From: Amoebophrya sp. A120
Taxonomy: Eukaryota; Protista; Dinoflagellata
Direction: 5' to 3'
DNA: 64,000 nucleotides
Assembly (NCBI GenBank): GCA_905178155.1
Contig: CAJINV010000001.1
Coordinates: 13,266,635-13,330,634, forward strand
Positions 8,301 through 36,418 of this stretch are shown here, one piece after another (positions within the stretch are counted from its first letter, which is position 1; every line of letters starts with the position of its first letter). The notes under the pieces are model-generated. The model had not been told where the DNA came from, did not search any database, and worked only from the letters and a program-made list of their open reading frames with translations. The translations under genes were made by a program, and so were the position numbers.

Positions 8301-9708
8301 ATTATCCTCGTCTTTGGAACTACTGCGCTCGGTGCGCTGATCCTCCTCTTCCTCTTCGAAGCTCTGGAAGCTCGTGTTTGTGCCGTCAGATCCTGCTCCT
8401 CCCGGTAAAAATGTGACCGGGCGGCTGGTGGACGAGGAAGAGCCTCCTTGCTGCATCCTTCGGTTCCTCATGTTCGAGGTATGGGTAACAGTATTCCCGG
8501 ACGACGCGGTGGAAGACGACATTGCCGTGTTGCTTCGCATTTTGTAGTTCCCCGAGTCGTTGTACGACCAGTCCCGAGTACCTTTACCACCAGTAGAAGT
8601 GTCTGGCTCCTTGCTCTCCGGCTTCTTCAGCTGCCTTGCGATGGCAATCTGGCGTGGCAAGGACTGCACTTTCTTCAGTCGCGTTGGATGACTGACGTCG
8701 TCACAGGCTGCGACGGTCACCTTCGCACGGTTGCAGTGCTTGTACTGCTCCGAAACGCGAAAGCGCCGGTCGAGATTCAGCGCGCGGTGGATCGCCGTGC
8801 GCATTTCGTTCACAATCGTCCTTCCGACACGAAACCGCAGAACCATAGAGTACCGAACGGAAAGAAGCAGCGTCGCAAGGCTGTAGTTTTTGTATGAGTC
8901 GGATGTTTCACTTTCATTTGAACTTCGGGCATCACTAGTATGAGGAACGAAGACACAGACGCGGCCATCATGCACTGAATTGCAAGTCAAGGAAAAGCTG
9001 GAAAACAAACCCAGTACCAGATACTCAGGCTGCACATGTAAAGTTGCGCCAAGACCGGGTGCTCCAAGATCATTTCGTCCGGCAACGGACCTTCGATGAG
9101 CATGGTAAAGGCCACACCCAAGATCAAAGTGTTGACGATCAACACGGTTTCTGCCTTCTCCGTGATCTGCGACCACTCGTCCCGCAGGTTTTCCCGGATC
9201 GCCGAACGCTATGCATTGCAAATATGTCTGGGTCTGGAAAAATTGGAATCTGTATTGCGTGTCTTGCACTCCTGTAAATTCTGTATTGTGCGACCGACAA
9301 AAGCGCGAATTCTTTGTCATGCAAAAACGCAGTTTCTCGTGCGCATTACACATGAGGAAGCGTCCTGAAAATTTGTCATGCTTGGCTGCACTCAGGAGCA
9401 TCCCCAATCATCGCCACTGAGCATCACAAGTTTCCAGACCCAGACATTTTTACATTTGATAAACGCCGCTCGGAATCGATGTTTTCCTCGTGCTGCACTT
9501 TGGCCTGCAGCATCTCGCGGGCATGCTGGTCGTTGCTCTGCTTCACGTCCACGCGGTGAAACTCCTTGTTGGCTTGCGTCTCGCATTCGTGGATGCGAAG
9601 TGATTGAAGAATGGATTCCTTGTGCAGGTGGTTGGCACGCAGGTGCTCGTTGTATTCGAACCCGAGGTTCACCAGCGGCGTCGCCGCGTCGATGAACGTC
9701 GACAACAT
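5323..9708 (-). CDS. Multi-pass membrane protein of unknown function (~1290 aa); 4 exons, one introner
   Basis: Removing introner 9210-9461 (+1 TSD) and GT-AG introns 8881-9017 and 7952-8073 gives one frame: IDSERRSAIRENLRDEWSQITEKAETVLIVNTLILGVAFTMLIEG...SLSICLATLLLSVRY...GDKKSRSRG...FCFMLGTWILLG. The last join is inferred from phase compatibility only. Confidence 0.65.
9210..9461. mobile_element. Introner-like TIR element, family A (252 bp), TSD AACGC
   Basis: Left TIR TATGCATTGCAAATATGTCTGGGTCTGGAAA; right TIR TTTCCAGACCCAGACATTTTTACATTTGATA. AACGC at 9205-9209 and 9462-9466. Removal restores the ORF. Confidence 0.92.
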
Positions 9709-10725
9709 TTTTTTCTAGATTGCTGTCGTGGTGAAGAGAAGAAGTGTTGTCTATTGCATTCTTGCGTACGTAGTTGTACTTGGCTGAGTATTCGATAACT
9801 CACTGATCATTTCAATAGGACCAGCGGGCAGCGCACAGATATCAAGGCGAGACCTAGATGTATTACGACACCGGGCTTATTAAAGAAACTGTAACCCGAC
9901 AAAGCTCGTGACTGACTCCAATTAGCATCAGGTGTATGCTGGTGCTAGGGATCTTGATCTTCCATCTCGCAATCGCGAGCGGAATCATAACTCCGACATG
10001 GCAACGAAGAAAACGAAACACGTTGGGCACACGACGCGTGGCACTCCAGCACAGCTATGCCGATGATCAACAATTATCACGATCACAAATCGCACGAGGA
10101 CTACGTGACATGAGCTGTCAAGAGTCAGGATCGTCTTCTTGCGTGCACCAATACCAAGCAGCTATCTCCTCCATGCGATTCTCCACTTCTCCTGTCATAA
10201 CCTACACCCTCGACCTTCGGTCCGACCGCAAACATTCCTTCGCATTCCTCTCGATGTCACTCTACTCAGTAAGCAAAATCGAATAAAGATGAAAGTCAAA
10301 GTTCTTGTGACGCGAAAAGGAAAACAAACAATGGCCGCAGTAGACGTATCCTCCTGCGAGATACTACCCACGAAGTAAGCACATTGTGCCAGTTCGTCTC
10401 AAGAATTGCAAAAGAAAATGCAAACGCGTTGAAAGCGCTTGTCCTTCATGAAATGCAAAATCTTGTGACAATTCGTTTGCGTGATTTTTTACCCGAGTGC
10501 AACATCGTATGACAGTTCATTTGTGACACAAGTTGATGTCAGTAAACGTTCATGATTATTTTCATTGTGGTGAAGTAGTACAAGTAGACCATCGGCACGT
10601 ATCATGCGCTTTTGAAATTCATCTATCAGTCTACAGTTATTGCTGTCTCTCATTATGTGTGTTTATGTATCTGATTGATTCTCATCGTGAGTGCAGTATC
10701 ACTTCACAATATTTCATATTTCCTT

Positions 10726-13387
10726 TCAAAGGAATCTCTTCCCACCTCGTCGCCCGCCTCCGCGCTTTTTCACCCGGTTGTTGTACGTCGCCACCGGGTC
10801 CAGCGGTCCGGTTGGCACTACGCCCGCGCGCAAGTCGTGCGCTATTTTCAAACCGGGATGCTTCTGCAGGCCGAGTCCCTCCGCGAGTTCGTAGGACAAG
10901 ACGGGCATCTGCACCATACCACAGCCGGTCAGGATCAGGTACGCCGCCTGGACGACTTGGTCCTCGGAAAGTTGCAGGACGTTGGTGTACAGCTTGAAAT
11001 GGCTAAGCAACGACGCGAACGCGGCGGCGGCCAACGAATTCATGCTGGTCGAAGACACCCACGACATTGTCGCTGCATTCAGGGCTTCGGAATAGTAGTA
11101 CCGTTGCGTGGTATCGAGGAAGTCGACGGTGTTGCGGTTTGTTGTTGAAAGTCGTCCTCCCGATCGGAAGATTTGTTGTTCTTGTTCTTGTGCGCTACTA
11201 GATAAGGAACCTCGCGACCTCGTCGGTTCGGAATTTCTTCCAAGAAGATCATTTGTTCCCGGGGGCAGCGAAGAAACGACATTGTCCGGCAGCACACCAG
11301 CGAGCTGAAAATTCGCACTGAGAACTTGGACAAACTTCGCCTCGTGGTGCGAGAGCAGTAGGTGTGCGCGGCCTGTTTTCCCGGCCCGAGCGGTCCGCCC
11401 CACTCGGTGCACGTACTGCTCGAAGTTGTGCGGCGCGCAGAATTGCAATACCAGGCTTACGTCTGGATAATCCATACCGCGGGCGGAGACATCACTGGTG
11501 AACAGAATCGACGGTTTGCCGTTCGTGCGGAACTCGCAACTGGTGCGCAAGCGCTGGTGCGCGTCCTTGCGGCTGTGGATCTCTAGTACAGGAAAGCGAA
11601 GCAGCTCGCGGAAGAAGGCTGCCATGAACTGTGTAAGTCGAGCGGTTGGGAAAAAAACCATGATCCGGTAATTGCTGGGATTCTGCTTCAACTCCTCAGT
11701 GAGCGCGTAGTGGAGCGCTGGAAGTAAGGTCTCGGCAGACACAAACTCGGCACTTTGATGCATCTTGTCGGTCCGGAGGTAGGTGCTGTCGTTGTTGTTC
11801 TCACTGGCGTCGCAAAGATCATCATCTACTTCTTCGTCGCCCCACTCATCCGTCTCGTCGTGGTTCTCCATTTTTCCAGAAGGTTTTCGATGGTCTGGTG
11901 CACGCCCATTTTCAGCGTCCTCACCGGCGCGCTCCTGGTCACACTCGACCCGCACCACGGAGCCGTCTATCCAGGAAAAAAAGTGTGTAAGTGTAACTTT
12001 CTTTGAGGAACGGCATCACAAATTTGCTCTACATGACAGAGAAAACCTGTCATGCATGGTTTGTAAAGGAAAACACACATGAAAATAGGACTTCATGGCT
12101 GTCTGGCATGACAGGTGTAACTCTGTTGCATCTTCTGCAACACAAATTTACACTTACACACTTTTTTTCTTGCATACCGTCGATGTAGCGCGCAATGACG
12201 TTGGTTTCCAGCGTCGCCGGCAGTGTGGCAGAAAACAGTAAATACCGCAGATTCGGGTTCTGGTTCGCGGTGGTCAAGTAGGAAAGGAGCCGCTTGAGGT
12301 CACCCAGAAAGCCCAAATCGCACAGTCGGTCGGCCTCGTCGAGCACTACGATTTCCAAGTGCTTGAACAAATCGTGGAAGAACAAGGTCTGCTCAAAGTG
12401 GTCCAGTAATCGCCCGGGAGTGGCGATCACGACATTTGGCTTGCGCTTTTTCAGCTCCACACAGTCCATTTTGCGCCCGCGCAAGCCGCCCACGAGGCAG
12501 CACAAACTTGCGTGCGCCGACTCGTGTGGAGGGTTTGCGGCACCTTTGTTGGCAGGGCTAGTGCTGGAAGTTTGCTTTTTCAGTAACGTCTTTTCCGCTT
12601 CGTGGGCGATTTGCATCGCCAGCTCCCGCGAGGGCGCAATTACCAACGCGCGCACACCGGGTGGCGGTATTTCCGTCATTTCCTCATCCTTGCTTTGGTC
12701 AGATGCAAGGAGCGCCGCGGACTCAGCACTGCATCCGTCAACAACTGATGCGCCGTGGTCAGTAGTTGCCCGACTAAAGAGACCAGGCCCTAGGCGCGGA
12801 TCCCCAAGCTGTTTTAGGATAGCAAGGAGATAGCACAACGTCTTGCCACTCCCAGTGGCGGCGCGCACTAGAATAGACTTGGCATCTTCCCGGAACAGCA
12901 CCGGCAGCGCGTGCCGCTGCGTGTCGGTAAATTTGCGAAAGCCGAGCAGGGGCTCGAGGACGGTATCCCGCAGAGTCCTCAACATCGCATCGTCGGGATT
13001 CCGTTTCGCCGAGACGCTGGAAGCGAACGCAGCGATGCTGCTGGCAGCAGGATCTGCAGGCCTTGCTGTCGCAACGGACGGAGTACTCTGGCAATTTTCA
13101 TTTTCTCCGAGCGGCGCCGTACCGCTCGCCGATTCCGATGCACGGGGGCGATACACCACTTTGCTCACCACACCACGGCTTCCGCCCGGAGGAAGAGGGA
13201 AAATCCGATTGCGCCATGACGGTGGAAAAATCTGACGGCGGCTTGCCGAAGGACAGGGGAGCAGAAGATGTTGGAACCCACCGATGCGGCGCCGAAGTGT
13301 CGAGGATCCGGATCCTCGTAAGTGTAGATGAATTACCATTCTCCTAGCCCCGGCGTATCGTCGCGTATGATTTTCATTTTCTATCAA
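10726..13387 (-). CDS. DEAD-box RNA helicase (MSS116/RH31-like), split by an introner
   Basis: Motifs AATGSGKT, PSRELA, TPGRL, DEAD, SAT, then ARGMD and YVHRVGRTARAG. The halves fuse as ARYIDGSVVRVECD after introner removal. Start codon uncertain. Confidence 0.9.
11968..12176. mobile_element. Introner-like TIR element, family B (209 bp), TSD CCGTC
   Basis: TATCCAGGAAAAAAAGTGTGTAAGTGTAA...TTACACTTACACACTTTTTTTCTTGCATA. CCGTC at 11963-11967 and 12177-12181. Collinear with the 57063-57271 copy. Confidence 0.92.
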
Positions 13388-14446
13388 CTTCTACTACGTG
13401 TTTCTCGTGGGGACTCCATGTGGTCTTCAAACTCTAGATGTATTTCCGCGTCACCACGCTCTGCATACAGCTTCTCGCTCTCCCCCGCTGCTGCCGCAAG
13501 AAGTGGTGTCGCCTTTCGACACAGCAGTGTACTTATTCGCCGTTCGTCCTTGTAAAGAAAGACTATAGAGAAGATCCTTTCCATCCAACCGTCCTTTACA
13601 TACACGAAAGATGACGCACCAGTGACGACGCAAGCGATTTACTTATCTGCGTAGTTTTTACACGATTGATGTGGATCCCAGAAGCAAGTTTCTGATACGC
13701 GAAAAGTCATTTCGATCTGGAACTCGATGTTCATCTACACGTCATCTGCGTCCCTGCTGTAGTGCAGCTCTTGTACCACGGCAGATTGCTTCGTGCAGGG
13801 AAAATCTTGAAGAACCGGCCCTGGTCTATTCCCGATTCTTCAAGTCCAGCCGTGGCACTGCGGTTCCCGCGTTCCGCCCCGGGAAGAGGCTAGAAGTAGA
13901 AGCGCCGAGCCATTCCTGGAACATAGTAGAGCATGATCCAAGGTAGGTGAGACGCACAGCATCAACACAGTTGCGTGGGAAGACTGTGACTGAGCAGTAC
14001 GCGGACGCAGCATAAAAACGGAGGGAAGCAGAAAACACGACTCTATCCTAAACCGGTGGTGCTGCTGAACATGTGGATGTGGCTCCTGCTCTTGTTAGTT
14101 CTTGCTAAAGGTTCTTGTCGAAGGTTCTTCGCTGCCCTTCTCGCTTCTTGAGCTTAATCCTTCGTTTGTCGCAAAGTCAGATCATCTAAATTTTTTACCA
14201 CGACTGTGATTTTTCTCGCCGTCTCGGCTCGGTCTCCAATTCGGTGTAAATCGGACGCAGTTCCGAATGAACTTTCTCGACTGCGGTGTCTTTCGTAGTA
14301 CCGCAGAGCAGTTGTCGAGGAGAAGTGAAAGCACAGTCGAATCGTTCGTCGCCTTTGATACACAAAGTTACAGCCTCCTGCAGCTTTACTAACGTGCACT
14401 CAGCTTCTACACAGAGAACAAGCCGCACAAATAATACAGTGGCTTT

Positions 14447-17400
14447 TTATTTCCGGTCGCGGTTGCTTTCCTTGTGGTCTCTGCTCCTAGTTTCCTTTTC
14501 CTTCTCTCGCTCCTTCTCCCGGTCCGCACCGCGGTCCCGGTCCGTCCTTCGCGAATTCTTTGTCGCATCACCGCCCTCGTTGTCGTCCTGCTCCACGAGC
14601 TTGGCCTCCTTTTTCTCCTCATCTTCTTTTCGCTTATTTTTGGCCTTGCTGTCACCCTCGTTGTCGGACTGAAGCTCTATCTCCCGGTAGTTGATGGCAC
14701 CATTGAACTTTGGATGCTTCTTTCTCTTCTGCGGACCTCCCACCTCCGCCTTGCGAAGCATCGGCGTTGCGCCGTCACCCAGGGCATCGACCGCGGCTGC
14801 ACCGTTGTTTTCCTCGTCGTCTCCGAGAAGCTGGTTGCTAGTACCCGCAGCGGCGGCTGTTGCCGGATCGACGTCCATGGTCACGTCACCGGCTTGTTGT
14901 TGCGCACCGGTTATTTGCAGTGGTAGATTCGGGCTGTGTCCCGTGAGCGCTTTGCTGAAGGCGCCAAAGCCGAGCTTTTGCTCCTTTTTCGCCAGCTTCT
15001 TTTTCTTCTGCAGGGCTTTGAGTTTCAACTTTTTCATCTTTTTCTGCTTGAGAACGGTCTTGAAGTTGTTGAATGCCTCGACGCCCATCTTCAGCTGGAG
15101 CTTTTTCTCTTTCTTTTTCCGCTCGATTTTCTTCTCCCGCTTCAAAAAGGCTTGGAGCGACACCTGCGGCAAGGGGTAGTCCGGAATGGGCTCGGGCTTG
15201 GGACCCAGTACGTGCTCGAGATCCTCGCGCCACTCCCCGAAATACATACCGGGCGTGATCAGTAAATGTGGAGGGTACTTCCACGTGCCATCACGTAACG
15301 TCTTCTTTTGCTGCTCCTTGCCCTCTTCAGCAGCGGCCTTCTCTTTCGCTTTCTTGGCCTCCTCGGGGTCGACGCGGAGATATCTATGTATTAAGCATTC
15401 CGATTTCTGTCGTGGTCTGTACCAAACAAAAAACATCAACATTCAAACAAGCATGGGCGGGATACAACGACACGACAGAAGACGAAAAAAGAAAAAACCA
15501 TCAGCACAGCAAGATCTTTCAATTTCAAATACCGCACTGCTAGTACCTTTCCAAATCCCCGAGGCCGAAGGCCCGGTAGCTGGTCTCTTCGATTTTTTTC
15601 TCCAGTTCCCGGATCACCTTGGGCCATTTGCGCTGAAGGTCTTTCCACTGCGTCGTGAGGTCGTCAAAGATTTTTTGGCTCGGCTTTACTTGATCCAACG
15701 TCCAGTCTTTGTAGGTCTTTGTCTTCTCCGCATTTGTCTTCACTTTGTTCAACTTGGTCTCGCACTGTGGTAAAGAAGGAAACGAGAGGTAGGCTTTTCT
15801 TTCAATTTGTTCGACTGACTAGTTTTGAAGAAGTGAAAGATTATCTTCACAAGGCCTGCAACTTCTGAAAACGAGATTCAATCGCATTCGCAATCAGTAC
15901 ATGCCAGCATACGAATCTTAAGTTGTGCTACTAGTAGTAGGTACCGACATAAAAAAGGAGGAAGCCAGCATCTACTTCAAATGTACCTCTGCGTGGACGC
16001 CCGTAAGCTTTTCATTGATCTTTTGAAACTCGGCTTTTTTATCCGCGACCTCCCTTTTCTTCGGATCCGAATCCCTGCTGGCGCGCTTGACTTTGTCAGC
16101 GAAATCCTCGAAGCCCGATTTGAATTCGACTACGCCATCCTTCGCAGCGTTGATGACTTTTTCTAGCACCTGCTTTCGCCGCTCCGCACTGAGGGCTTCT
16201 TTGCCAATTGCTGTCGCTGCGGCTGCAGGTGCAGCGCCGTCCTTTCCAGCTGCTGTCGCAGCTGCTGGAGTGGCTCCAGCCTGGTCCGGTTTTTTGTCTT
16301 TCTTTGCTTGATCCTGCTGCTGATCTACCTTGGCGTTGGCATTCGTATTCGCACCTTCATCGGGAGCTTTATTTCCGCTGCTTTTACCACTCGTCTCTCG
16401 TTCTACTCTTTTACTTTGACTTGGGCGGTCTCGTCCCGCGGACTTGTCAACATCTCGATTCATTTCTTTATCCGCGTGTTTACTGGCCTTGCTTTTTTCC
16501 GTGTTTTCCCGATCCTTTTCTCGGGTTGTCTCCCGCTCAACACGGTCTGATCGGTCCTTCGTGGGTTCTCGATCCCGTTCCCGGAGCTGCTTCTTCTCCT
16601 CCTCAGCCACCGGTTTGCTTGACTTGTGTTCCCTCGAGGAGACACCACTAGCGTGTTCCTTGTCCCCGCTTCTTTGCTCCGCGATGTCCTTTTCCTTGCT
16701 ACCCTCCTTGTTCCGGCTTCGGTCTTTTTCTCCCCGATGGTGCTGTTCCTTCGGCTCGTTGTTCATCTCGCGCCGGTAGCTGTGGTCCTTGTTGTCCCTC
16801 TGCTCCCTGTCTCCTCGTGGTTCGCGTTCGCCCCGCGCCGCCTCCCGTTCGCGCTCCGCCCGCTTCTCTTCCTTCTCCTTTTCGGACTTGGACTTCATGA
16901 CCAACCCGCCTCCGGTTGAAGTCGTTCCTTGATTCGACGTGGTCGTATTCCGGGCGTCCTTGTCCCGATTTATTTCCCGCTCGCGCACCTCCCGATTCGA
17001 CACCATGGACGTGGGTCGGACGTCTTTGTCGCTCTGTTTCGCCGTAATGTAGTGGTCCGGCGCCTTGTTGGGTTTCTCCTCCTTCTTGCTACCGCGGATA
17101 AAGTTGTTGTCCTGCTTATCGCCCCCGCCGCGCTCTCCTCGGTCCTTCTCCCGCTCCGTTGCCCGCTCGCGCTCGCGCTCCCGGTCTTTCTCTCGCGACA
17201 TCACGCCCGCGTCCTGAGATGTGGTGGTCATACACGATACTTCTTGTTGAAGAGATGATTCAGAGCCACTCGAAGATTCTTGCTCTGTAGTATCTGCAAA
17301 ATGCAACTTGGTATTAACAGGTCTTCTGTAGTCTGCTGGTGCTCGGAATGGCAAGAACGGCCCGCGCCCCGCTCTACTCCCAACACCACTTGTTCTTGCA

Positions 17401-18143
17401 TTGAAAGCCATAGTACTCGAGTTCGTGTTGCTTGCATCTTTACCAGTGGCTACACTACTACTGCCCATGCCAACATTATCAACGTCTCGCACACGTTGCG
17501 CTTCTGGCCCCCTCGATTGATCAACAAAATGTTGGGGGGCGACACCTCCTCTAGTACCGGGGGTCGTCGCACTACCTCCGCGGCCATTTCCAGCACTAGC
17601 AGCCACAATCACATCATTTTTAGGCGGTAGCGGCAAGAGACCACCACCTCGCGCACTGTTGCTGTACTCCCTCTTGCTACTAGCAGGACCAGAAGGCTGC
17701 TCCTGTTGTTCATCGAAATTGTCCCTGTTATACGAGGACGAGGACTTCTTAGGTGGTAAAGGGACCAGCTGTACCTTATTTTGTTCGCGCTGCCGCATGC
17801 GCTCCTTCTGTTGGTGTTCCTTGGCCGTCTGGCCGTCTTTCGTTTTCAAAGAAGCTTGCTGCATATTCATCTCCTGGTCCTTGCGCCGAATTTTCGCTTC
17901 CCGGTTATCGTGGTCGCGGTTGGAGCCGGTCCGCTTTTCCGGGACGGGAGATCGGTTGCTGGTGTTGCGGCCCCGGTCCCGCATGTCACGGTGGTCGCGG
18001 TCTTGCGCTCCCCGGTCGCGGTCGCGCCGATCCCCGCCGGTGCCATTGGCCGTGCCGTGCTTGTTCTTCATCCGGTTCTCTTCGTCCCGCTTTTTCTCCG
18101 CCAGTCTGGCCTTCAGCATGTCCGTGTGGCTTCTACTGGACAT
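14447..18143 (-). CDS. Highly charged R/E/D/K-rich low-complexity protein; 3 exons
   Basis: GT-AG introns 15765-15986 and 15384-15546 join ORFs 15972..18143, 15540..15752 and 14447..15442 in frame (VHAE|CETKLNK; DLER|YLRVDP). Confidence 0.75.
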
Positions 18144-24755: not shown

Positions 24756-25701
24756 TGTCGAGAGAAGTGCAAGTGGGTACAAAGAAATTAAGCAAAAAAG
24801 TGCGAAATAAAGCGGTGGCCGATAGCCCTACAACTTATAGGAGAAAAGTCGCTTACGCTTCCTTTTAGAAAAGAGAAATCAAAGCGAATAATCTCAGTAT
24901 CTACGTCGAATGGGTCCTTGGCCTCAAAATCTTTGCGTATTTTTCAAAAGTGCTCTGTCAATCGTCGCTACGGGCGGCGTAGTCGTAGAGAGAGACAATT
25001 ATGAAGTTACAACAAATAACTATCGCTGGGATCTGAAGGAGCGCGGTGAGTAAGTAGTTGAGAACTTTTTCTTACACTGAGGATTGAAAATAAGCTGTTG
25101 TTCGCGGGGAACCAACGGGATCTTCCTGTCGCTGCGATGATTGATAGAAGATAAGGATCGAACTGTGTGTTGTCTCAAACGAGCCCCTATTATCCTATGT
25201 AATCATGCGCTGATGCTGATCCTCCAAATCCTCAATGCATCAAATGCACATGCTGTACTACGTACATGATCTTAACTCGTCCTGGAACGGAATCAAGGTC
25301 TGTGTCGGTGCATCTGATCCTGCTCTTTCGCAAAGAGGTTTTTCAGTTCTCGCACCACGGTGAACTAATATAGTTAGACATGTTCTTCTTGGGGAGCTAT
25401 AGTATACCTACGACCGATAAAAAATCGTCCATTTAAAGTACTTTGACAGACATCTGCAGTATCCGCCACAGAGTGGCTTCTTGCGAACACAGCATCTTCA
25501 GATGATGCTCCACATGCTCCTCAACACTGTGCGCTGTCTTTCGTTTTTTTCAACTGAGCGACCACTCAGATGTGCACCTGAGGTTCACAAACGATCTTGC
25601 GTTACACGTTTGGCTCTGAGAAGAGACTGCCTGCTGACACAGCCTGCGACAGGCGTGAAGAACTCGTGCATGTTTATTCGCGGCAGCGGTAAAAAGCGAT
25701 G

Positions 25702-28700
25702 CTATCTAAAGCTTGTCGCAGATTCGAGCCGGCGTCGAAAGATTTGACTGGCATCTTCCCGCGGTTGCTTTATTGTACTAGCAGTGGTGCCAGAAGCGGA
25801 AGACGCAGCACTGCTGTAGTTGCATCTTCGCTGCAAGGCGGAGAACCTCCATTGCAAATCCGACAAATTCGGGGGACGAAGAGCGCCGCTGCGCGCTGAC
25901 TTGTAGTGGTCGAACTGCTCCGTAGCCTCCAGTACAGACAATGTGCGCGAGCTCTGCGAATGCCCGTCGCGACTGTAGCGCGACGACATCGTTCTACTGG
26001 CGGGGGCAAAGCCACTCCTGTTTGGCGACGTGTTGAAGGACGCGGAGTAGTTGTTGTTTCCATGCTGCGCCGGCACGAATGGTTCCAGCTTGAGGCCTTG
26101 TTGTGTAGCATCCAGCATGGAGGTCGATCCGCTTTCGTTGAGCAGTCCCCCGTTGGGCGAGCGCAAGCCTGCGACAATGCCGGAAAACCCGTCATGCGAC
26201 TGGTAAATAGGGGTCACCGAGCTGGACGCCGCGCCGAAAGTCCCTGCTCGTGCGTTCGGACTTCCGTGGAACAGCGGGTGGGCAGTGAGCGCGCTCAGCT
26301 CCATGGAGAGAGAAGAATCTAGCAAGGCCGCGCGGCTGGCCAGGAGCGTGCCGGGATCCGACAGCACCGCATCAGTCGTGATGTCCACGCCGCCACACTT
26401 CGACACGCTGCAAGACGAGCTGCGCCCGCGGGTCTTGTTGTTCCGCCCGCTGCGCTGCTGCTCGTACCCCGACCTTTCCGGCTCGTCGGAGCCTGAGGGC
26501 GCGTTGTTTCGACCTGCGAGGGGGTCGTTGCGTCCACTTCCGGACGGTGAGACGTCTTCCAGTGCGGAGTTCGTGCGGGCGACGACGTACTGGGGTTTGG
26601 GTTTCGGCACAAGTGGTTGCGGAGAACCGAGCGGCGAGGCCCCAAACACCGGGGTGTCGATGGCGAAGGCCTTTGCTTTTGCACTGATCGTGCTACTTGA
26701 TGCACCGAAGTGCGTGGAGGTGCTTGCGTCGGGAGGACTGGTCTCTACCTTCAGCGAGGCGCCACGGAACGGAGGCAGTGGGGGCGGCGGCGTTGTGCTA
26801 CCTGAAGTAGAGAAGAGAAAGAGTTCGATTGGTGTTGAACAAAAGAAGTATTTACGTAAGAGGTCATTAACACATGGCGGAGATCGAGTATATTAATTCA
26901 AGACTCTTCGCAGCATTTTTGCAATTCAGCACTCTTTGTTCGGTACCATTTGGATTCCACTTGCTGCTCTTTGATGGTGGGACGAGCGCGCCGGCCTTGG
27001 GGTCGGACCCGCGGCGAGAGGGTGACCGGCTGCTTGTTGCAGAAGACGGGGCGCCACCGCGTTCGGAAGGCGGGCCGCTCGGCGGCGCCGTTCCCCCTCC
27101 GTCCGAGGCTTTGTTGGTCGGCGGCGTTGCGTCGCCCGACAGGAACTCCAAGCCTAGCGAGCGCCACTGCGTCTGCGGTTTTGCCGCGGCATCCGCAGTT
27201 TTGTCGAAAAGCTGCAGCGGGTCGCCTCCCGTAACGCCCTCTCCGTCAAACACAATGGCGGCGCCTTTCTTCTCAAATTCCGGCATGCGCGGTGACCTTG
27301 TGTTCACGGGCTTCTCGTCCTCTTCCTCTTCTTCTTCGTCCGCGAGTTTACTTTTCGGTGGGCCGAAAGGGGAGGTTGGAGAGTCCAGTGACGATTTTAT
27401 CCTCGGCACGGGCGAAGCTTCCGAAGACTTCTCGGTTTTTGCTCCGGGGGAAGCCGAAGCAGCTGCGTCGTCTACTATGTTTTGAATTATTTCCGCGTCT
27501 TGTTTCACCAGTGCTGCAGGAGAAGCGTCTGACTCTGCTTTTTCGGAAAGAACTGGCTCTACCTCTGGTGGAGTGTTGTTTCCGTCTGCTACCAGTTTCT
27601 GGATCGTCGCAATATCCCTGTCCTTGTCCACTGGCAAAGAGACGGATGCTGACGCATCAAAGCTATCCTCCTCTTCCTCCTCGTCCTCTGGTCGCAGGCG
27701 AAACACAAAACCACCATCGTCAGCGGCATGATCAGCGTCCGGTTTACTACTCTCCCCTGCCGCTGGCGCAGCGGGTGGTTTTGGAGTAGTTTGCGCTCCT
27801 GCTACGGATTCTGAGTTGCTGTAGCTATCGCCGTCCTCTTCGGTGAGAGAAACTTCGTAGACATACTCAGACGACGACGAGCCTGCGGGCGCGCTCTGCT
27901 TCGAATCCGGCTTTCCGTTGATGTTGTTCTCGACGCCCATTACAACTGTAATGTTGCCGTCTGGAGGTTCTGTAGCATTCGCATTCGGCAAACTTTTCGG
28001 AAGAGGTGGTGGTGGTGGTGGCGGAGGTACTGGCCCACGTGCATTTGGTGGAACCGGGGGTGGCGCGGGTCGTCTGGCGCTGCCGCTTCCTCCGGTTCGG
28101 GCGGACAAAGCCGCTGGAATCTCCTCGAGCGGTCTGGATTCCAGAGTGAAATTGGAGTCGAGCTCAATCACGTACTCGGACGACGACGCCGAGACAGCAG
28201 TTTCGCCGCCGCGGATCGCGCCACCGTAGTTCACGGGCGTGACACCGCTTTGCAGATCGACGCCGTCGTCGGCTGCTGCTGCATCGGCGGGCGCTTTAAT
28301 CTCCTCGTCCTGGTGCAAAGTTGTCGTGTCTGCTACCTCTACTGTCTCATCCTCCGCACTCTTCACAGCGGTGGATTTTTCCGTCTTGGTTGCAGATGAC
28401 GGCTCGGCGGTGGAAGGAGCCCCGCCTGCGGTGGCCTCTGCGGGAAGCTGTAGCTCGTCTGACGCAGTTTCGTTCTTGAGCTTTGAAATATTATCGCGAT
28501 CCGGCGAGGGGGTCGTGGCGGCGGGCGACGTGCTCGAAGACTCAGCGTCTGCGCCACCGGAGCCGAACATCCGAAAAAGCGCATCGTTGATACCACCAGC
28601 GTCTTCTTCTTTCTTCTTTTCCGAAGATGCTTCAGTGGGTATTGCAAGGCCAGTTGACTTTTCTTGTGCGGATTCCGGCCCGGGTGAAGAGGCAGCTTCT

Positions 28701-31167
28701 TCGCCCGCGGTGTTCAACTTTTCTTTGCCGCCCTGTCGCACCGAGCGGATGCGGAAGGGTAATGGCGAGGGTGACATGGCTACCGATGGGCTGGTTGGCG
28801 AACTACTGGCAGGTGTGTTTTCTCCCTCCTTCTTCGTCGCCAGCGGCTCCAGCTTGCGGGGAGGTGAGGAAGAACTGGGGGACGACGGATTTGCCTGCGT
28901 ATTTGGAACTGTTTCCTCTTGCGCAGTCGTTTTTTCTTTTGCGCCTGCTCGACGTGCGCGATCCGCCTTGCGGTTGGTGTTGCCCTGAATTTTCATTTGG
29001 AGAAAAGTTGATGGGATTTCATTTGCTATATGAAGATTCTCTATTTCTTTGGTTACTCGTCGGAAGCAAATGACACACTTGACACGCAGCATCAGGACGC
29101 AATCGCTATTCTGTCTTGCTACCTCGTAATTGAAATCATCGGAATCCGAAGTCCAATCTTCGGCTTCGACGGCCACTGGCTGTTTTTTCGCTTGAGGTTC
29201 CTCGTTTTTCGTCGTAGCCAGGAGATCCACTCCGAAAAATTGCTTTCCGCGCTTATCAGCCACCGGCCCTAGATTGGACGCTGCCTTCGGAGGGGCCACT
29301 GATGCTGCGGCAGGATCCGGTGTGGCTTGCTCCGCACCCTGATTTTTTTCAACGGATAAGTTGCGTAAAATCGAACTAGATAAACGCAACCACGAGCGAA
29401 AAGCATCGTTGAAAGTTCGCGATGAATGTTTGTTTACCTGTGTCGTCTCTAGTGTGTCGGTACTCTGCGCACCGGACTTAGCAGTGCCGCTTTGATCACC
29501 AGTCGAGCTGGTTTCCGCAACTTCCGCTTCGTACTCCGATGTTCCCGAGCCTGAGTCGGCAGCCTCCTCTGGCGGTACAACCGGCCCAGTCTGTGTGCCT
29601 GCGCTTTGTGGTTGCTCTGGTTCTTCCTGCGTTACCGGCAGCGCCGCAGTCGCTCCTGCAGCCGGACTGTCAATCCCGTCCTCCGGCACGTCGCGCAAAA
29701 GAGGTCCGAGAATTTTTGACATTTCATCCTCGCTGCTGTCGTCTGGTACTAAACCTGCTGCAGAGGACGATGAAGCAGCCCCACCGCCCAGAGCCCCTTT
29801 GATGCCGCCCGAGGCCGCGAGCCTTGTCGTCGCTGCGGCTGCTCCGTTGCGCAGAAAGGATGGCGCGGCCGCGCCGAGCGTGTGAACCCGCGCCGGCGTG
29901 CTGGGTTTCGGCTTCGTCGTTTTCGTCACCACGGGAGACATCATCGGAATCTGTTCGCTCTTCACACTGTCCTCATTATCCAACAGATTCACGACGTCTT
30001 GAGCTGCAACAACTCCGACCGCAGTAGCTTTTTTCCCAGTCAAAGCGCTGCTCGTCCCCTCTTGCTGGATATTTTTAACCGCCTCATCGCCGTCGTCGTC
30101 AACCTGGGCGAGCAGATCGCCTAGCGAGCTTTCGTCGTGGTCCTTTGAGGTGTTGTTTCCACCGTTCTCCGCGGGGAATAGCGCGCTCATATCCTCCTCC
30201 TCCTCATCATCGAACGCCGGAAATTTTGCCTTCTCCTGGCCGCCTTGGTCACCGCCCCCTCCGACCCCCGCCGGGGTATTATTCCCGGCTGTGGGGGAAC
30301 TCAGGGGCGACAGTCCCAGCGACTCATCTACCTCGACGTGCTGCCCGCCGGCGAGGGAATCCGCGTCCTCTGCATCATTCAGTGCACCGGCTCCGGGCGT
30401 TTTATCCTCGTCGTCGTCCATCGAAAGTCCCATCTCATCCTCGTCCGCCAGGTCTTCTTCTAAATCCTTCAAGGAAAACTTCGGCAAGCGCTGCACCATA
30501 TCATCCGGCGTCTATCAACTGCAAAAATGTCTGGGTCTGGAAACTTGTAATGCTGCGTTGGGAATAGTGAATGCTCTGTAATGCACAAGCAAGCATGACA
30601 AATATCTGCGCTTCTTTGTGTTGCAATTTTCGCATGACAAACTGCGTTTTTGCATGACAGGCAAAAGGGTCTCTTCTTGGACACGCATCACAAACCGATT
30701 GGTCATGCCAGACAAGCATGACAAATTTGCACTCTTCCAGATCCAGACATTTTTGCATTTGATAGCGTCCGCGCTGGAGACTGTTCCCGCCCCTCGAAGT
30801 AGTCGGATTCGCGTTTGCGCAACTCGGAGACCACGAAATCGTGATTGTAATCCTCCGCCGTGGTGCGAATGTACTTCTTCGGAATCTGCTGCAGCCACTC
30901 GTCCCACTCCTCGTCATCATCGCCTTCCATGTCCTCCCAAAGCCGCCCCGGGGACAGCATCGGGAGATCCCGCTCCTTCCGACGGGGCCACATGATCCTT
31001 TGGTGCGTAGTTCTCGGATGGTCTATATCTTGCGCAATAGTCAAGGTGTCTGTCGCTTTCGCAAAAGGACCACCCGTCGATTTTTTCTTTGCGATCGATG
31101 TCTCTAACGAAAGTCTTAATAAGCGAAGAGCCAACGAAGAAAGAAGTACATACCAAGCTTGATTCAT
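25702..31167 (-). CDS. Very large low-complexity, intrinsically disordered (S/A/E/P-rich) protein containing an introner
   Basis: ORF 30703..31167 fuses to 26867..30499 after introner removal (QSPARTPDDMVQRLPK). GT-AG intron 26802-26946 joins it to 25702..26649. Probable in-frame introns 28985-29122 and 29339-29437. Start uncertain. Confidence 0.7.
30513..30764. mobile_element. Introner-like TIR element, family A (252 bp, opposite orientation), TSD GCGTC
   Basis: TATCAACTGCAAAAATGTCTGGGTCTGGAA...TTCCAGATCCAGACATTTTTGCATTTGATA. GCGTC at 30508-30512 and 30765-30769. Confidence 0.93.
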
Positions 31168-31670
31168 TTATCGTAGGACGCTTGCGATTGGTAGGTGAGC
31201 CGCAAAAAATGCGGTCGAAAAATAAGGACGAAATCAAATCCACGCAGGCCTCACAGCTTGGAAAATTTCTGCACTTTGGCAACGTTCGCAAACGAAGACG
31301 CAAACAAAGTCAAACCGCTTTGTTTCCTAAAGACACTAACGTGAAAGCTTAGTGCCAACCACCACAACGGAGATCGACTTTTGAGACGTCTCCGTACGCC
31401 TTGCTCTCATGTCATCCTATTTCCTCGTCTCAACTGTTTTCGGACCTTTTCCTGCAAGAGTCCACATTACCACCACACGCGGCCGACCCTATTCATCCCA
31501 GCCCGAGAACACCGGTATTTTCAGCGAGCATCTGTCAATGAGGCCAATGCCACATTACTCCCGCTTAGTAAGCGGTTTGAAAATGCCTGCAATGCGTTTC
31601 TTGTTCGTTGAATAGACGTGCTTATGCGTTTTTACTACGACCACAGGGTATAGTATTCAAGATCCTCGCC

Positions 31671-32176
31671 TTATGAATTTTCCGCTTTTCGATAGTCGCA
31701 TTTTGCGCATTGGTAGTAACACGTCTGGCCTTCGTCTGCGGATCGAGTTTGCCTGGTCCAGAACATCAATCTGTCGTTGCCGCACTTGGGGCAGTCTTGT
31801 ATCATCTCCGCGTAGTTTTCTGCGCCGCTTGGTACCGTGAACGCGTTTTCTTTCTGCCACCTCTTCACCTGTTTGATTTTGGTTTTTGTGATAATTTCAA
31901 ACGCTTCATCGAGTTCTGTGCTCCTCTCGGTGGGACTTCTAAATGCTGAATCTATCAATAGGGAGCTGGACCAGTTCTTGCTCATCTAAAGACAGTTCTA
32001 CTTAAAACGGAAATCAGTACCGCAGCTTCCTTGGTGATTGTGATCGCGGATGAGAGCGATTCTTTTTCTCCTATCATTACATCCCAGCCGCACATTTGAC
32101 AATGCTTTCTATTCGCCTGTGAGTAGTCCAGCACGCTGGCACATATCTTGCAGTAATTTGAGGCGTCGAAAGCCAT
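31671..32176 (-). CDS. RPA12: RNA polymerase I subunit A12 (RPA12/ZNRD1-like, TFIIS-type zinc ribbons)
   Basis: N-terminal CKIC..CQMC; C-terminal CPKC..QTRSADEGQTCYYQCAKC. 35-nt GT-AG intron 31986-32020. Confidence 0.8.
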
Positions 32177-33047
32177 TGCCGCTATTTGGAGTTGTATCTG
32201 GCTTTTCCTTTTCTTTGTCTTAACGAACAAGTATGGACACAGAAGTGGTTTCTGATTGGTATGCCGGGCTAATGTCAAAGTGACAGGACAAAAAAACTTA
32301 AATGCTTCCTCGTCCTGCTCTATATGCTACTTACGCGCCTTTCCTTGGTGTTGGTGTCGCCTGATAAGGGTTGAGGTTCAAATTATGGACATTGGAAGGA
32401 TCGCAGTAGCACCACTAAGCTATCATGTGATCTTCATGGGTGCCCGAGATCACATTCTTATTTTCCGGCCACAAACACGTGACCTTTGGCGGACCTGTCA
32501 GCGGGTGCGTGGATCCTTTCATTTTAGTCTCGGTGTAGGAACTCGTTGATCTAATTCACGATGGTGTCCTCCACGGATTGACATTGAACCTTTCACATTG
32601 CGTCACGACCGAATTTGACCAGACCAAGAAAGTATCGTACTTATTTGCGAGAACTGGAACATTGAATGATGAGATCAAACGACCCTACTTCGTCGCATCT
32701 AGCAAATTGCAGTTGCCTCATCAAGAAAATAGCTCAGAAAATTGCGCATGCAGAGGCGAGTTCATCGGGGTAAGAAAGTCATCTGCTCTCAATCAAGAAA
32801 GCACGGCTGCGAGTGAGGAGGCGAACTTTCTTGGGTTGAAGAGAGATGAAAAAGGGTGATAAGGGTAACTCAAACAGGTCAGTGGTTGGGAAGTTGTGCT
32901 TGTAGTGAGAAGAGTCATTACCATTAGGGGTAGGGGCAGCCTGCAAAAAGAAAGCTCATCAGATTTCGTTGAGATCGGAAGCAAGTCGATGCAACAAGTG
33001 AGTCCTCAAACGCAACAAATAGTTGTCGCTGTTGCAGTCCAAAAGCT

Positions 33048-34054
33048 TCACGAAAACAGCCACGTCGCCGTTCCGATCACGGAGGCCAGCATCATCGCGC
33101 CCTTCGTACTGCCCAACAGACTGGAGGCGCCAGAAATTTGGTTGGGGTTCACACCGCCGCCCGGAGCTCCCGTCGCCGGTGGATCAAAGTACCCGTTCTT
33201 GAAATAGTTCTGTCGTATTTATGTGTAGATTTTCGTTTTCCACTGCGAAGATGAAGAACACATCATCATCATCATCATCATCATCATCTATCCTGCGCGG
33301 GGTGTTGCGCAGAGGGTAATTAGAAGTACTTCTACGTGCTCATACTACACCAGCATGCTCTCTTGGTGCACAAGCGAAAAACCACGAATCTTCAATACAA
33401 AAATGTAATTTCAGGTACGTCCTGTGGATCGCAGAGGTTCTTCATGACCATCCAAAACACGCCCATGTGCAGCTTCTGCCAGCAGGAGTGCCCGAGCGAT
33501 TTGTACCGGTGCTCGCACGCCACACTGCACACCTCGCCTTGGTTGCTGTAGTAGAGAGCCCGAAGATAAAAATGTTTTTGAGGTTCTCTCATCAGTCTCA
33601 ATCATTGTGATTTTGAAAGATAACACATCAAGACATCATTAAATATCATTTACCCTGCGCACGGTGGGCAGGTGCCGTCGCTCTGGCAGCAGGCCATAAT
33701 GCAGGGTGTTCCGTCATCCAGCGTGCTCCCATACTCGTAGGACATTTGGCAGCACTTGGCCTGATTCGGATCCACCAGACAGTCTGCATCCGCGGTTGAT
33801 GTTGATGATACTGACAACGTTGGATCCGCACCACTGGCCAGAACGCAGATGGTAAAAAACGTGCGGACTCGGACTGGGAAGAGTGCGAGCGGTTTGTGTT
33901 TCTTCCCGTCTTGCCTTCTACTGGTCGAAGAGGCGGAGGAGGTGGTGCTTCTGTTGCTAAGTTGAGAAAAAGGAGGTGTCGACAAACTTACCGCACAGTC
34001 GCTGACCATGTCTTCCTCTGCGCACGCCGGTCCTGATCGCTCCAGCACTGTCAT
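33048..34054 (-). CDS. Small Cys-rich, putatively GPI-anchored surface protein; 3 exons
   Basis: Exons ...DCLVDPNQAKCCQ..CIMACCQSDGTCPPCA / RALYYSNQGEVCSVACEHRYKSLGHSCW..LCDPQD / NYFKNG..SGASSLLGSTKGAMMLASVIGTATWLFS*, the last ending in a hydrophobic tail. Start codon and first acceptor uncertain. Confidence 0.55.
33261..33288 (+). repeat. (CAT)9 microsatellite in an intron
   Basis: catcatcatcatcatcatcatcatcatc. Confidence 0.95.
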
Positions 34055-34677
34055 TTTATTGTAGTTGTGACTTTTACTTGAAAGACTAGAGTTCGTTTCG
34101 AAGCGTTCGCGCACAAATCAAAACTTTCTATCTTCCTTGTCAGGTTTTTTTACTCTGAGGAAAACTGGGATGTAAGGACTTAGATCCTCAATCTCAGCAA
34201 AGCGCGGGGACAACTGGGTCGAGAAGTTTTTTTCGAAAAAACAATGTTTCTTGTACGGGTCTTGAATATGGACAATTTGTTTTATCATTTCTCTCGGAAT
34301 ATTCGCTCTCGTCTAATACCCAGGATCACCTGATAGTGATATCCTACCCCTCTCTCAACTTCTATAAAGAAGAAACCCCAGTGCCCGTCACACACTTGTG
34401 TAAACATCGAATCTCTCAGGTGCATCCCAAGAACCACTCTGTCATTTCTCGAACTCAATTAGCTTTAGCTCTTCAAGGCTTATAGCAGTGTTCATGTTCT
34501 TTAGACTTTTTTCTATACCGCAATTTGCTTCGAAAGAAACGATGGTGATGGAAACGGGAACCTTGTTAGCAAAGAACCAGTGGTGTTGAATGAACCTACT
34601 TGGTAAGGAACTTTTCGCTTTTGCGGCTCAGAATCTTGCTTCACCACGCACGACCATTTCGTATCCTGCTCGGCAGA

Positions 34678-36418
34678 TCAAGTCGCCCTTCCTCCAGCTC
34701 GCCTTTCTTGCCGCGACATCCTTCCCGGGGATGGCGAAAATAAAGGCGGCCCGTCGGCCTTATTTTGGCCAGCAGCTGAAAAATCCGGCTGGCCCCGCCC
34801 CCGCTCCGCGCTGTAATCGCTGAAAATACTGCTGGCTTCCTCGTCCTTAAACAGCACGCGACGGCTGCTGTTGGCCGCATTGGGGCTATGCAGACTATCG
34901 TTCTCGTCGTACTCGTCTTCTACGGATTGATCGTCCGCCTGCCCCCCGTCGCGGGTCGGTGAAACAGGACGACTCGGCGTTCGCTCTGCATTCGTGCGCG
35001 CTACATCTGTATTGTTCAGTGTTGACCAATCTTTCCTCAACGTGGTCGAAGGGCAGCGTTTCTTTGGGCTTCAACTTCAAAGAAACACCACAAAACTAAC
35101 ACAAACAGTTTCTCTTGTGGAAGACGTAAACCCACACTCACGAAGCAAAAACAAACATACATGATACCAAGCCGCTTCAATCTTGCGTACAACGCGGTAG
35201 AAAAGCGTCCGCCTAAAATCCAACTATCAAATGTAAAAATGTCTGGGTCTGGAAGAATTCATGTTTGTCATGCTTGTCTGGCATGACCCTTAAATCTGTC
35301 ATGCACATTACCAAAGAGCCCCACTTTTCTGTCATGCAGAAACGTAGTTTGTCACGCAGAATAGGCAACACCTAGAAGCTCAGAAACTTGTCATGCTGAG
35401 CCAGCAATTGTGGCCTCCTCATGATACGCCACGCAGCATCACAAGTTTCCAGACCCAGACATTTTTACATTTGATACCAACAGAGCATGAACAATGCGAG
35501 GGAGCCGACGGCAACCGCAACCCGGAATGCGCCATTCTTCGTGTAGTCCCAAACCGTTCCGAAAACCCCACCCCCGCCTCCACCCCGCTGCGAGGAAGAG
35601 CCGCTCTGGTGCGAGCTACCCGCTCGCGCTCGATGGTGCTGGTGCGAGCGGTGGTGATGGTGCTGCGACGTGGAACTTTCATGCTCTGCCTGCTGCTCGT
35701 AGTGGGCGGCGGGGTCATCGGATGAGAGCAGCGGGTCCACCAGATTCCGAAAGGCGCGGTTAGCGTCCCCGATTGGTCCTGGTTTCTTCTGGACAAATGG
35801 TCTTGTGAGGCCTAAAAATTCGTCATCCTCCGGCGAATTGACGCCCGACAAAATATCGCGCGCTGCGTCCACAGTCGAAGGAGTGAGTTCGGTTCTTTCT
35901 CCGTCTTGTTCAGGACTTTTGGTTATTTTTCGTTGGTTTTCGGCGGACATAATCTCTGCCGAGTCGGGCAACGCTCGTCGTATTATTTGCTGCGATCGCT
36001 GCGGTGTAGAGGCACCACTTTCGGACTGATCATTGCCAAGTGCATCTGCTCTGCTGCCGAAATCACGAGCCTCCGCTGTCCCCGAAGGGAGCAAAGGTTC
36101 GTCCCCAACGTGACTGTTGTGCAGTGTTGTCCCAGCGGTATGTCCTCGTGCTGCTTCCCGCCTCGCATCGGCCTCAATGTCCTCGTTCATTTTGTCGATC
36201 ACAGTCTCCACCGCCTGCACAGAGGGCGGCCGCTCGAGAAGGTTTTGCGGATCGGTCACGGAACCGTCCACGTCCATGTCGGCACGGCGCAGAAGCGAAG
36301 GGTGCTCCGCAGTTGTCGCAGTCGTTAGCCACGGCGACGTGAGAAAAAACGAGAGCGTCGTCGAGCATCTAGCGAAGGAAGGCACTCTCGGCAACGCTGA
36401 TCTCCTGCCGGGCGTCAT
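34678..36418 (-). CDS. Single-pass membrane protein; introner inserted at the TM segment
   Basis: ORF 35465..36418 continues after introner removal as VAVGSLALFMLCWILGGRFSTALYARLKRLGI. A probable GT-AG intron then joins it to 34678..35040. Confidence 0.65.
35225..35476. mobile_element. Introner-like TIR element, family A (252 bp), TSD CCAAC
   Basis: Perfect 30-bp TIR TATCAAATGTAAAAATGTCTGGGTCTGGAA. CCAAC at 35220-35224 and 35477-35481. Confidence 0.95.

Follow-up and report, generated by a model that had tools for sequence, protein, structure and literature searches.

The window analysed here, a 64-kb stretch of the Amoebophrya sp. A120 genome, carries three 252-bp repeats of one family (family A), each lying within a coding exon between perfect 5-bp target duplications:

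9210..9461, plus strand: 252-bp introner of family A, in antisense orientation relative to the host gene; duplication 9205-9209 / 9462-9466; forward motif starts 9250, 9281, 9314, 9334 and 9373 (three degenerate), inverted motif 9421-9430
30513..30764, minus strand: 252-bp introner of family A, in sense orientation relative to the host gene; duplication 30508-30512 / 30765-30769; minus-strand motif starts 30724, 30693, 30660, 30640 and 30601
35225..35476, plus strand: 252-bp introner of family A, in antisense orientation relative to the host gene; duplication 35220-35224 / 35477-35481; motif starts 35265, 35296, 35329, 35349 and 35388, with inverted motifs close to 35281 and 35436

The copies have TAT..ATA ends and 30-bp inverted repeats (perfect in the copy at 35225), and they show the traits of a MITE, being short, with terminal inverted repeats (TIRs), a target duplication and no coding capacity, each copy having stop codons in all six reading frames or in five of them. 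As reported in the first-pass annotation, all three are exactly 252 bp long and align without gaps once 30513-30764 is reverse-complemented, with forward motifs at element positions 41, 72, 105, 125 and 164, an inverted one at 212, and divergent spacers such as positions 81-104; the copy at 9210 has two to three mismatches in three of its five forward motifs. That annotation had passed over a further inverted motif at positions 57-63 in two of the three copies, the 5-bp duplications, the location in coding exons and the fact that the repeats belong to a known kind of spliced non-canonical intron. Pairwise identity is 53-56/60 in the inverted repeats, 43-50/54 (80-93%) in motif columns and 69-82/138 (50-59%) in spacer columns.

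Ten additional introners bring the window total to 13, the 5-bp duplication being perfect in 12 and matching at four of five bases in the remaining one:

11968..12176, unstranded: 209-bp introner of a non-A family, in a helicase gene between the DEAD and helicase-C halves
39012..39227, unstranded: 216-bp introner of a non-A family, in an ER-lumen-receptor gene
39338..39641, plus strand: old decayed 252-type introner of 304 bp, in the ER-lumen-receptor gene
40003..40179, unstranded: 177-bp introner of a non-A family, in the ER-lumen-receptor gene
50181..50712, minus strand: family-A 262-type introner with about 270 additional internal bases
53733..53945, unstranded: 213-bp introner in an ABCB gene
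57063..57271, unstranded: 209-bp introner in the ABCB gene
57324..57585, plus strand: family-A 262-bp introner in the ABCB transporter gene; duplication 4/5
61776..62010, unstranded: 235-bp introner of a non-A family
62082..62387, unstranded: 306-bp introner of a non-A family

Within these 13 elements, which total 3,419 bp, the motif YTGTSATGC is present 32 times, compared with twice in the remaining 60,581 bp, an enrichment not due to chance. The decayed copy at 39338 contains many insertions, is 52 nt longer than 252 bp, and its motifs and right repeat are eroded.

The three 252-bp repeats are Amoebophrya A120-type introners, a kind already described, and not lone MITEs. The host protein at 9210 corresponds to P0122 (named Amoebophrya sp. 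A120; 100% identity over 86% of the query), which continues across the copy, and both P0122 and P0121 cross the site exactly as expected with the element and one duplication taken out. With the copy at 30513 taken out, a 132-codon open frame becomes continuous with the 1,210-aa ORF at 26867-30499, and with that at 35225 taken out the frame stays open for 62 further codons; from this restoration of the frame we infer that both are spliced. One piece of contig 11 from run X3 ends at 35477, and the upstream exon of this third host gene found no relatives at E 0.001. At 53733, ABCB homologues align in one piece only after the element and five bases are removed. Contig 12 of run X3 has 266 nt at this locus, the length predicted after removal of the elements at 39012, 39338 and 40003 together with one 195-nt GT-AG intron, and the prediction gives an open frame; judging from this length arithmetic, even the decayed copy at 39338 is apparently still exactly removed. 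In the catalogue of copies described below, where 75 of 187 sites were testable and 24 of these were strand-discordant, the flanking frames fit removal of the element plus 5 bp at 34 of the 51 strand-consistent sites, against one third expected. Raw RNA runs gave 95 reads on the stretch for X11, almost all from a repeat of another locus, and none for X12, so that these two runs carry no information on removal. In keeping with a repeated family, 8,447 contigs of run X1 match a 16-kb stretch and are stacked on the elements. An origin as a giant-virus or bacterial repeat is ruled out by the GT-AG introns and poly(A) end in run X3 and by the A120 protein.

A120 introners are non-canonical introns with inverted repeats and direct repeats of 3-5 nt (Farhat et al. 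2021, PMC7789003; Gozashti et al. 2025, PMC12130899), the repeats reading TAT, seven variable bases and then at least three A (PMC7789003). All three copies fit this formula, and they share with the described introners the direct repeats at exon borders, the location in genes and the membership of a repeated family of similar copies. A120 TIR families of 252, 256-261, 278-279, 149, 209, 305 and 319-322 bp have been tabulated, among them fam12 with 331 copies of 252 bp (PMC12130899); the same lengths recur here, the match being one of length. In the portions of PMC7789003 and PMC12130899 available to us, we found no description of the internal motif, its spacing, the A/T period or the insertion scars reported below.

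For comparison among copies, a catalogue was compiled from the window and from at least 154 loci found by one pattern scan, all in assembly JACKZZ01, giving at least 187 copies in all, which were chosen by exact repeat match, with TAY ends and a target duplication matching at four or more of five bases; most come from this one other assembly. Viral contigs gave no matches. Among the matches listed, family A comprises at least 127 copies spanning 240-324 bp (17 at 252 and 24 at 262), at least 39 of the 252 type and at least 88 of the 262 type. The target duplication is a perfect 5 bp in 171 of the 187 listed copies and imperfect in 16, and none is of 6-8 bp. Codon-position counts of the duplication are 15, 5 and 3 in the catalogue and 4, 4 and 4 for 12 window elements, with no bias in the window, and no weight is placed on the catalogue figures. 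The family-weighted end profile has T, A and T at 1.0 each (TAY being preset) and A at 0.66-0.90 at positions 11-15. The flank profile is flat, and a preference for a target sequence was rejected. At nucleotides 4-10, left and right ends match in 16 of the 127 listed family-A copies (17.7 by chance), and these terminal haplotypes are mixed between ends, between subfamilies and even between families; trees of copies are therefore approximate, because copies exchange ends.

The motif, in the fuller form RYYTGT(C/G)ATGC, is common to ten families whose interiors are otherwise unrelated (between-family local scores 22-76, against self scores of 98-524). At 19 of the 20 ends of these families the distance from the end to the outermost motif is 36-39, 45-50 or, in the rarer class, 60 bp, and these offsets are phased at 10.5 bp (R 0.60, p 0.002). 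Among 70 motif pairs the best period within 8-14 bp is 10.25 bp, exceeding all 300 randomisations, but a period of 16.5 bp fits as well (0.58 vs 0.57). A single spacing class of 30-33 bp holds 15 of the 40 same-direction pairs, and without it the fits are 0.49 for 16.5 bp and 0.52 for 10.25 bp; since 16.5 bp fits equally, pair spacing alone cannot pinpoint a helical period. The proposal of phased binding to one face of the duplex is supported by the end offsets and by a shared 11-nt deletion, with pair spacing ambiguous, and of the intervals 31, 33, 20 and 39 bp, said to approximate whole turns, the last corresponds to 3.7 turns and not 4. Runs of A/T recur with a period of 11.75 bp across the ten families, and the same peak appears when the analysis is confined to the 13 window elements or to the three 252-bp copies; it persists after masking of the motif and is absent from 292 non-element tiles. 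A nucleosome-type A/T period of 10-10.5 bp was rejected, there being little power in that range.

On the tree joining the three 252-bp copies, no insertions of 2 nt or more are found, against about 16 expected at the terminal-branch rate, and to this extent the absence of indels remarked on in the first-pass annotation stands; family-wide it does not, given the length range of 240-324 bp. Resident family-A copies among those listed carry many insertions, mostly of +3 (one base added to a 2-bp duplication) and +6 (one base added to a 5-bp duplication); no element with a 2-bp duplication that might be the source of the +3 scars was recognised among the listed inverted repeats. Insertions of 3 nt or more hit motifs, spacers and inverted repeats alike, and the statement that the copies are unlike a MITE in neutral decay is not supported, since resident copies do decay. 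In the same listed copies, 88 indels of 2-8 nt are private and none is common to sister copies, where 29.6 shared would be expected; for 1-nt indels the figures are 42 private and 15 shared (18.2 expected). The only shared large deletion is one of 11 nt, in five copies. Spacing is thus kept in the lineages that spread, as the idea of selection on geometry requires, but sequence is constrained too: motif columns are 91-94% conserved, and the spacers, far from free, keep the 11.75-bp A/T rhythm. Private substitutions, even in scarred copies, are about half as frequent in motifs as in spacers (0.037 vs 0.094; 0.018 vs 0.059). Host-level selection could be an alternative source of this last difference.

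Orientation counts of 7 sense and 10 antisense and of 19 sense and 14 antisense indicate that these asymmetric elements occur both ways round. Each copy folds, pairing its termini in a long stem (z -5.5 to -7.7), and covarying internal structure is absent (double change in 4 of 41 predicted pairs, covariation term +0.39), as is any Rfam match across the window, so that a conserved RNA fold was rejected. Both orientations, the lack of internal covariation, the unlike ends at nucleotides 4-10 and the apparent removal of the copy at 39338 point to the DNA rather than the RNA level.

We therefore consider that the elements are probably small non-coding DNA transposons which insert into coding exons and are removed together with one duplication, and whose internal spacing is kept for re-mobilisation and not for splicing. 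An integrase-type transposase would act in trans, cutting at the TAT..ATA ends, and a single DNA-binding protein, which might be another domain of the same transposase or an architectural protein supplied by the host, would bind the motif copies of all families on roughly one helix face. A/T runs spaced more widely than the helical repeat would favour a tight interwound loop, joining ends merely 110-320 bp apart. After insertion the copy would be spliced either way round and its geometry would become dispensable, and it would gather +3 and +6 scars and cease to spread; the fixed spacing is likely kept because only geometry-intact copies can mobilise again. More tentatively, the sampled A120 families, whatever their TIR, may share one DNA assembly code, consisting of the helically spaced motif and the 11.75-bp A/T rhythm, that builds an interwound complex for a single mobilising machine, this machine or its repair leaving the frame-preserving scars. 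Neither a transposase nor a motif-binding protein was found, and six unpaired ends inspected contained no recognised transposase-like frame.

It is unlikely that the motif array is instead a splicing signal read by a host RNA- or chromatin-binding factor in removing these introns, which lack GT-AG borders, with motif and spacing selected by the host. Splicing and the motif are both common to all families, U1 snRNA is given as undetected in A120 in the available text of PMC7789003, and the excess of private changes in spacers and the long terminal stem could be read in the same way; however, the use of both orientations, the insertions spread equally over motifs, spacers and repeats, the lack of internal covariation and the consistency of the copy at 39338, with +52 nt and eroded motifs, with exact removal all argue against such a signal. 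Homogenisation of length without selection on spacing appears quite unlikely. Under this view, frequent gene conversion or gap repair templated by thousands of copies, or else fast, error-prone copying by master lineages, would maintain the modal length as spacers drift. It would account for the shuffled terminal haplotypes and the near-neutral sharing of 1-nt indels, and if error-prone copying in little time were the source of the lineage substitutions, internal branches would be scar-free without selection; in addition, the few imperfect duplications (among copies ascertained at four or more of five matching bases) indicate a resident time short relative to lineage divergence. Nevertheless, it leaves unexplained why families with unrelated interiors have motif offsets stepped by about 10 bp and one A/T period, and why motifs persist longer than spacers. 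Finally, the geometry might be a chromatin signal, addressed to nucleosomes or to a DNA-packing protein of dinoflagellates, by which a copy becomes accessible as a donor, and no part of the transposition complex. A/T runs at regular intervals are known as classical signals for packaging (PMC4132750), and all families share the signal, but we regard this as improbable, since the period is 11.75 bp and not the nucleosomal 10-10.5 bp (PMC4132750), window DNA outside the elements lacks it, and the motif offset is anchored to the element ends.

The reading as re-mobilised DNA transposons bears on how the tens of thousands of non-canonical introns of A120 have spread. The A120 genome paper, in the text available, reports no transposase, gives the origin of these introns as undetermined and argues against general transposase-mediated mobilisation (PMC7789003), a view from which ours differs in that the present data suggest selection at the DNA copying step. 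A motif common to unrelated families offers a bait for the missing protein, the spacing rules suggest mutants (+5 vs +10 bp) that would separate transposition from splicing, and the A/T period of 11.75 bp gives an exact physical hint as to how the complex is shaped. Should +3 and +6 scars also reach exons, they would be a source of mutation leading to the rapid protein change that has been reported in the genus; under a single shared machine, each such scar would lengthen a protein by one or two residues and help drive rapid protein evolution.

Comparable internal arrangements are known in other transposons. In the Emigrant/Lemi1 MITEs the transposase binds internal subterminal repeats cooperatively (PMC1636448), and ISY100 and Mos1 have phased A-tracts, periods above 10.5 bp having been proposed to favour an interwound transpososome (PMC4132750). 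In those systems the repeats or periods are confined to one family, whereas here one motif and one period span ten families that differ in their repeats and have unrelated interiors, and the elements also serve as introns. With respect to their ends, the elements resemble the IS3EU/GingerRoot DNA transposons, a group with an IS3/integrase-like DDE transposase. Members of that group have TA..TA termini (PMC10045372) and usually 6-bp duplications, the duplication here being 5 bp and never longer among the listed copies. A120 family 38, tabulated as 'Ginger; 5-bp TSD, TA/TA termini' (PMC12130899), has the same ends and the same duplication length as the elements described here.

The copies at 9210-9461, 35225-35476 and, in reverse complement, 30513-30764 are each 252 bp long and align without gaps, and the motif positions and spacers quoted in the first-pass annotation are present in them as stated. 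All three end in TAT..ATA, carry 30-bp inverted repeats and are flanked by a perfect 5-bp duplication. In pairwise comparison the three copies are identical at 53-56 of 60 terminal-repeat positions, 43-50 of 54 motif columns and 69-82 of 138 spacer columns. A structural scan detected 12 elements in the window and a relaxed scan a decayed 13th; their repeats are of several kinds, and together they make up 5.3% of the window. The motif (YTGTSATGC) is element-specific, with 32 exact matches in the 3,419 bp of the elements versus 2 in the remaining 60,581 bp. The features discussed individually are:

9210-9461, plus strand: 252-bp family-A copy
30513-30764, minus strand: 252-bp family-A copy
35225-35476, plus strand: 252-bp family-A copy
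39338-39641: decayed copy in the ER-lumen-receptor gene, which also holds 39012 and 40003
50181-50712: 262-type element whose interior is enlarged by about 270 bases that include a short direct repeat; it has no recognised repeats of its own
53733-53945: element in the ABCB gene

The elements themselves are already known. Judging from the accessible parts of the sources, they share the anatomy of the A120 introner elements reported in PMC7789003, and their lengths, the only feature compared, are those of A120 TIR families in PMC12130899, whose supplementary table includes a 252-bp family of 331 copies and enters family 38 as '5-bp TSD, TA/TA termini'. The TA..TA ends also recall IS3EU/GingerRoot; because duplications there, in the part of PMC10045372 consulted, are usually 6 bp, as opposed to 5 bp here, and no transposase was found at the unpaired ends inspected among the matches listed, we did not file the elements under that group.

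In all 12 elements of the structural scan, two minus-strand open frames become continuous once the element is excised together with one duplication. For 9210 only two relatives were found, P0122, which its source names Amoebophrya sp. A120 and which matches 86% of the query at 100% identity, and P0121 (92%); the sequence of both across 9210 is the exact product of this excision. Homologues of the ABCB gene align in one piece across 53733 only with the element and 5 bases removed, and not with +0, +4 or +6 bases. In sequencing run X3, presumed to be RNA, GT-AG introns are skipped and poly(A) stands at the end. Its contig 12 represents the stretch between 39005 and 40179 by 266 nt; by length arithmetic this is exactly the remainder after 39012, 39338 and 40003, each with one duplication, and a 195-nt GT-AG intron are removed, and the predicted product is a single open frame. 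For 30513 and 35225, restoration of the frame suggests removal as introners. Among the matches listed at other loci, 75 of 187 elements could be assessed from separately called flank frames, 24 of them with discordant strands, and 34 of the 51 strand-consistent cases fit removal of the element plus 5 bases. Of 23 confidently framed sites (listed loci and window), 15 have the first base of the duplication on the third codon position; the 12 window elements are distributed 4, 4 and 4 over the codon positions.

An X3 contig at 32706-34074, with its poly(A) end at 32706, skips GT-AG introns 33210-33418 and 33546-33653, so canonical and non-canonical introns occur in neighbouring genes. In run X11, some 90 raw RNA reads align solely to the family-A repeat at 35225-35256 and then run into another locus, indicating transcription there of a copy that is either unspliced or intergenic. 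One X3 contig with T for C at 30696, inside the element, may represent another copy. All genes examined in the window lie on the minus strand, resembling the unidirectional clusters reported for Amoebophrya in the accessible text of PMC7789003.

A pattern scan returned at least 154 loci, every listed one from assembly JACKZZ01, the nearest listed copy being 3% from 35225. Together with the window, the listed loci hold at least 193 elements, 187 of them shorter than 400 bp; the duplication is perfect in 171 of these 187, the catalogue itself having required at least 4 of 5 matching bases. Family A (252- and 262-type) has at least 127 copies up to 330 bp. Since these span 240-324 bp, with modes at 252 (17 copies) and 262 bp (24 copies) among the matches listed and the window, the absence of indels first noted in three copies does not extend to the family.

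The proposal that motif spacing is helical stands in part. Ten families have at least three copies among the matches listed and the window; their interiors are largely unrelated and all carry the motif. Its outermost occurrence lies 36, 37, 37, 38, 38, 38, 39, 42, 45, 45, 46, 46, 47, 47, 47, 48, 48, 49, 50 and 60 bp from the 20 ends, offsets that fit a 10.5-bp period with p 0.002; p values here are optimistic because the families possibly descend from a common ancestor. For motif pairs separated by up to 90 bp, a search over 8-14 bp with two fitted parameters favours 10.25-10.5 bp, and in 7 of 8 variants the fit exceeds that of each of the 300 randomisations. When the range is widened to 20 bp, 16.5 bp fits as well (0.58 versus 0.57), both periods being fractions of the dominant 30-33 bp spacing, and therefore the helical reading rests mainly on the end offsets and an 11-nt step.

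The further claim that selection acts on geometry and not on sequence is not supported, given that the spacers are not free: AA/TT runs recur every 11.75 bp, with a pooled power of 7.3 against a block-shuffle maximum of 2.5 (10 families) and autocorrelation peaks near 12, 24, 35, 47 and 59. Seven of 10 families peak at 11.0-12.0 bp, and the signal is stable when any one family is dropped and persists (11.5) with 11 bases masked on either side of every strong motif. The 13 window elements show it by themselves, as do the three 252-bp copies (0 of 500 shuffles); scarred copies show it less strongly, and 292 non-element tiles lack it. In the part of PMC4132750 available, periods above 10.5 bp are related to interwound negatively supercoiled DNA, with a role in transpososome formation proposed for two transposons; by analogy, the same reading may apply to these introners.

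Indels were counted in 126 family-A copies (matches listed and window) against the nearest modal-length copy. There are 177 insertions (66 of 1 nt, 19 of 2, 51 of 3, 13 of 4, 6 of 5, 15 of 6 and 7 longer) and 62 deletions (42 of 1 nt, 6 of 11 nt); an 11-nt deletion ahead of the first motif is common to five copies. On trees of the interiors, a caveat to which is that copies exchange ends, all 88 indels of 2-8 nt are private, versus 29.6 predicted from branch lengths to be shared (p 7e-8 and 2e-9), and the sharing of 1-nt indels, at 15 of 57 versus 18.2 predicted, agrees with expectation. Exchange is implied by nt 4-10 of the terminal repeats of family-A copies, where a small number of end haplotypes recur in shuffled form on left as well as right ends, across subfamilies and even in different families. 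A duplication of at least 2 bp is included in 44 of 51 +3 insertions in family-A copies (38% expected by chance), and one of at least 5 bp in 12 of 15 +6 insertions (0.9% expected); the duplicated stretches are usually separated by a single additional base of no fixed identity. As the target duplication of the element is likewise 5 bp, +6 insertions are probably footprints of excision or of an aborted insertion. Both sizes preserve frame and were counted in intron DNA, where frame selection is not expected. Insertions dominated by +3 and +6 were observed in family-A copies of the scanned loci and, in the window, at 39338-39641, 40003-40179 and 53733-53945.

A merely recent onset of scarring is argued against by the growth of insertion number with terminal branch length (rho 0.49 and 0.33) together with 0 insertions on 1.67 units of shallow internal branches; fast error-prone copying could also leave internal branches scar-free. 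Single copies fold strongly through their terminal repeats, but 31 aligned copies revealed no covarying interior, the elements occur in both orientations relative to the gene, outer ends are not matched within a copy, and decayed 39338 is consistent with exact removal; these last four points favour the DNA over the RNA level. Against this, private changes are about half as frequent in motifs as in spacers, scarred copies included, so that the motifs may play a role in splicing. The most likely reading, held with moderate confidence, is one of MITE-type introners that an integrase-like transposase would mobilise in trans, with one shared protein sitting on the phased motifs; this binding and a shape-coding A/T rhythm would be needed for end pairing, and splicing would use the ends and the duplication independently of internal geometry. 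Binding of a transposase to internal repeats is reported for the Emigrant MITE in the accessible text of PMC1636448. In the introner and transposon literature searched, as far as accessible (including PMC7789003, PMC12130899, PMC9860276 and PMC12005148), we found no description of the shared motif, spacing, 11.75-bp period or scars, which figures, supplements or subscription papers may hold.

Some listed loci contain ends without a nearby partner (L006 from 894 onward, L074 at 894, L075 and L048 at 929); L074 and L075 probably mark both termini of a single element, about 970 bp long and carrying a nested insertion, and in L048 and L075 a T-rich tract directly follows the first motif. At L024 (1315-2114), a family-A end and first motif are followed by AT-rich DNA and unrelated repetitive sequence, with no partner end in the 800 nt up to the contig end, possibly the end of a long element. 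In the window, 59705-59999, just upstream of a methyltransferase gene, has weak inverted repeats and neither TAT ends nor a 5-bp duplication. At L018, a tandem array of a 17-bp partly palindromic unit (1654-1818) adjoins elements.
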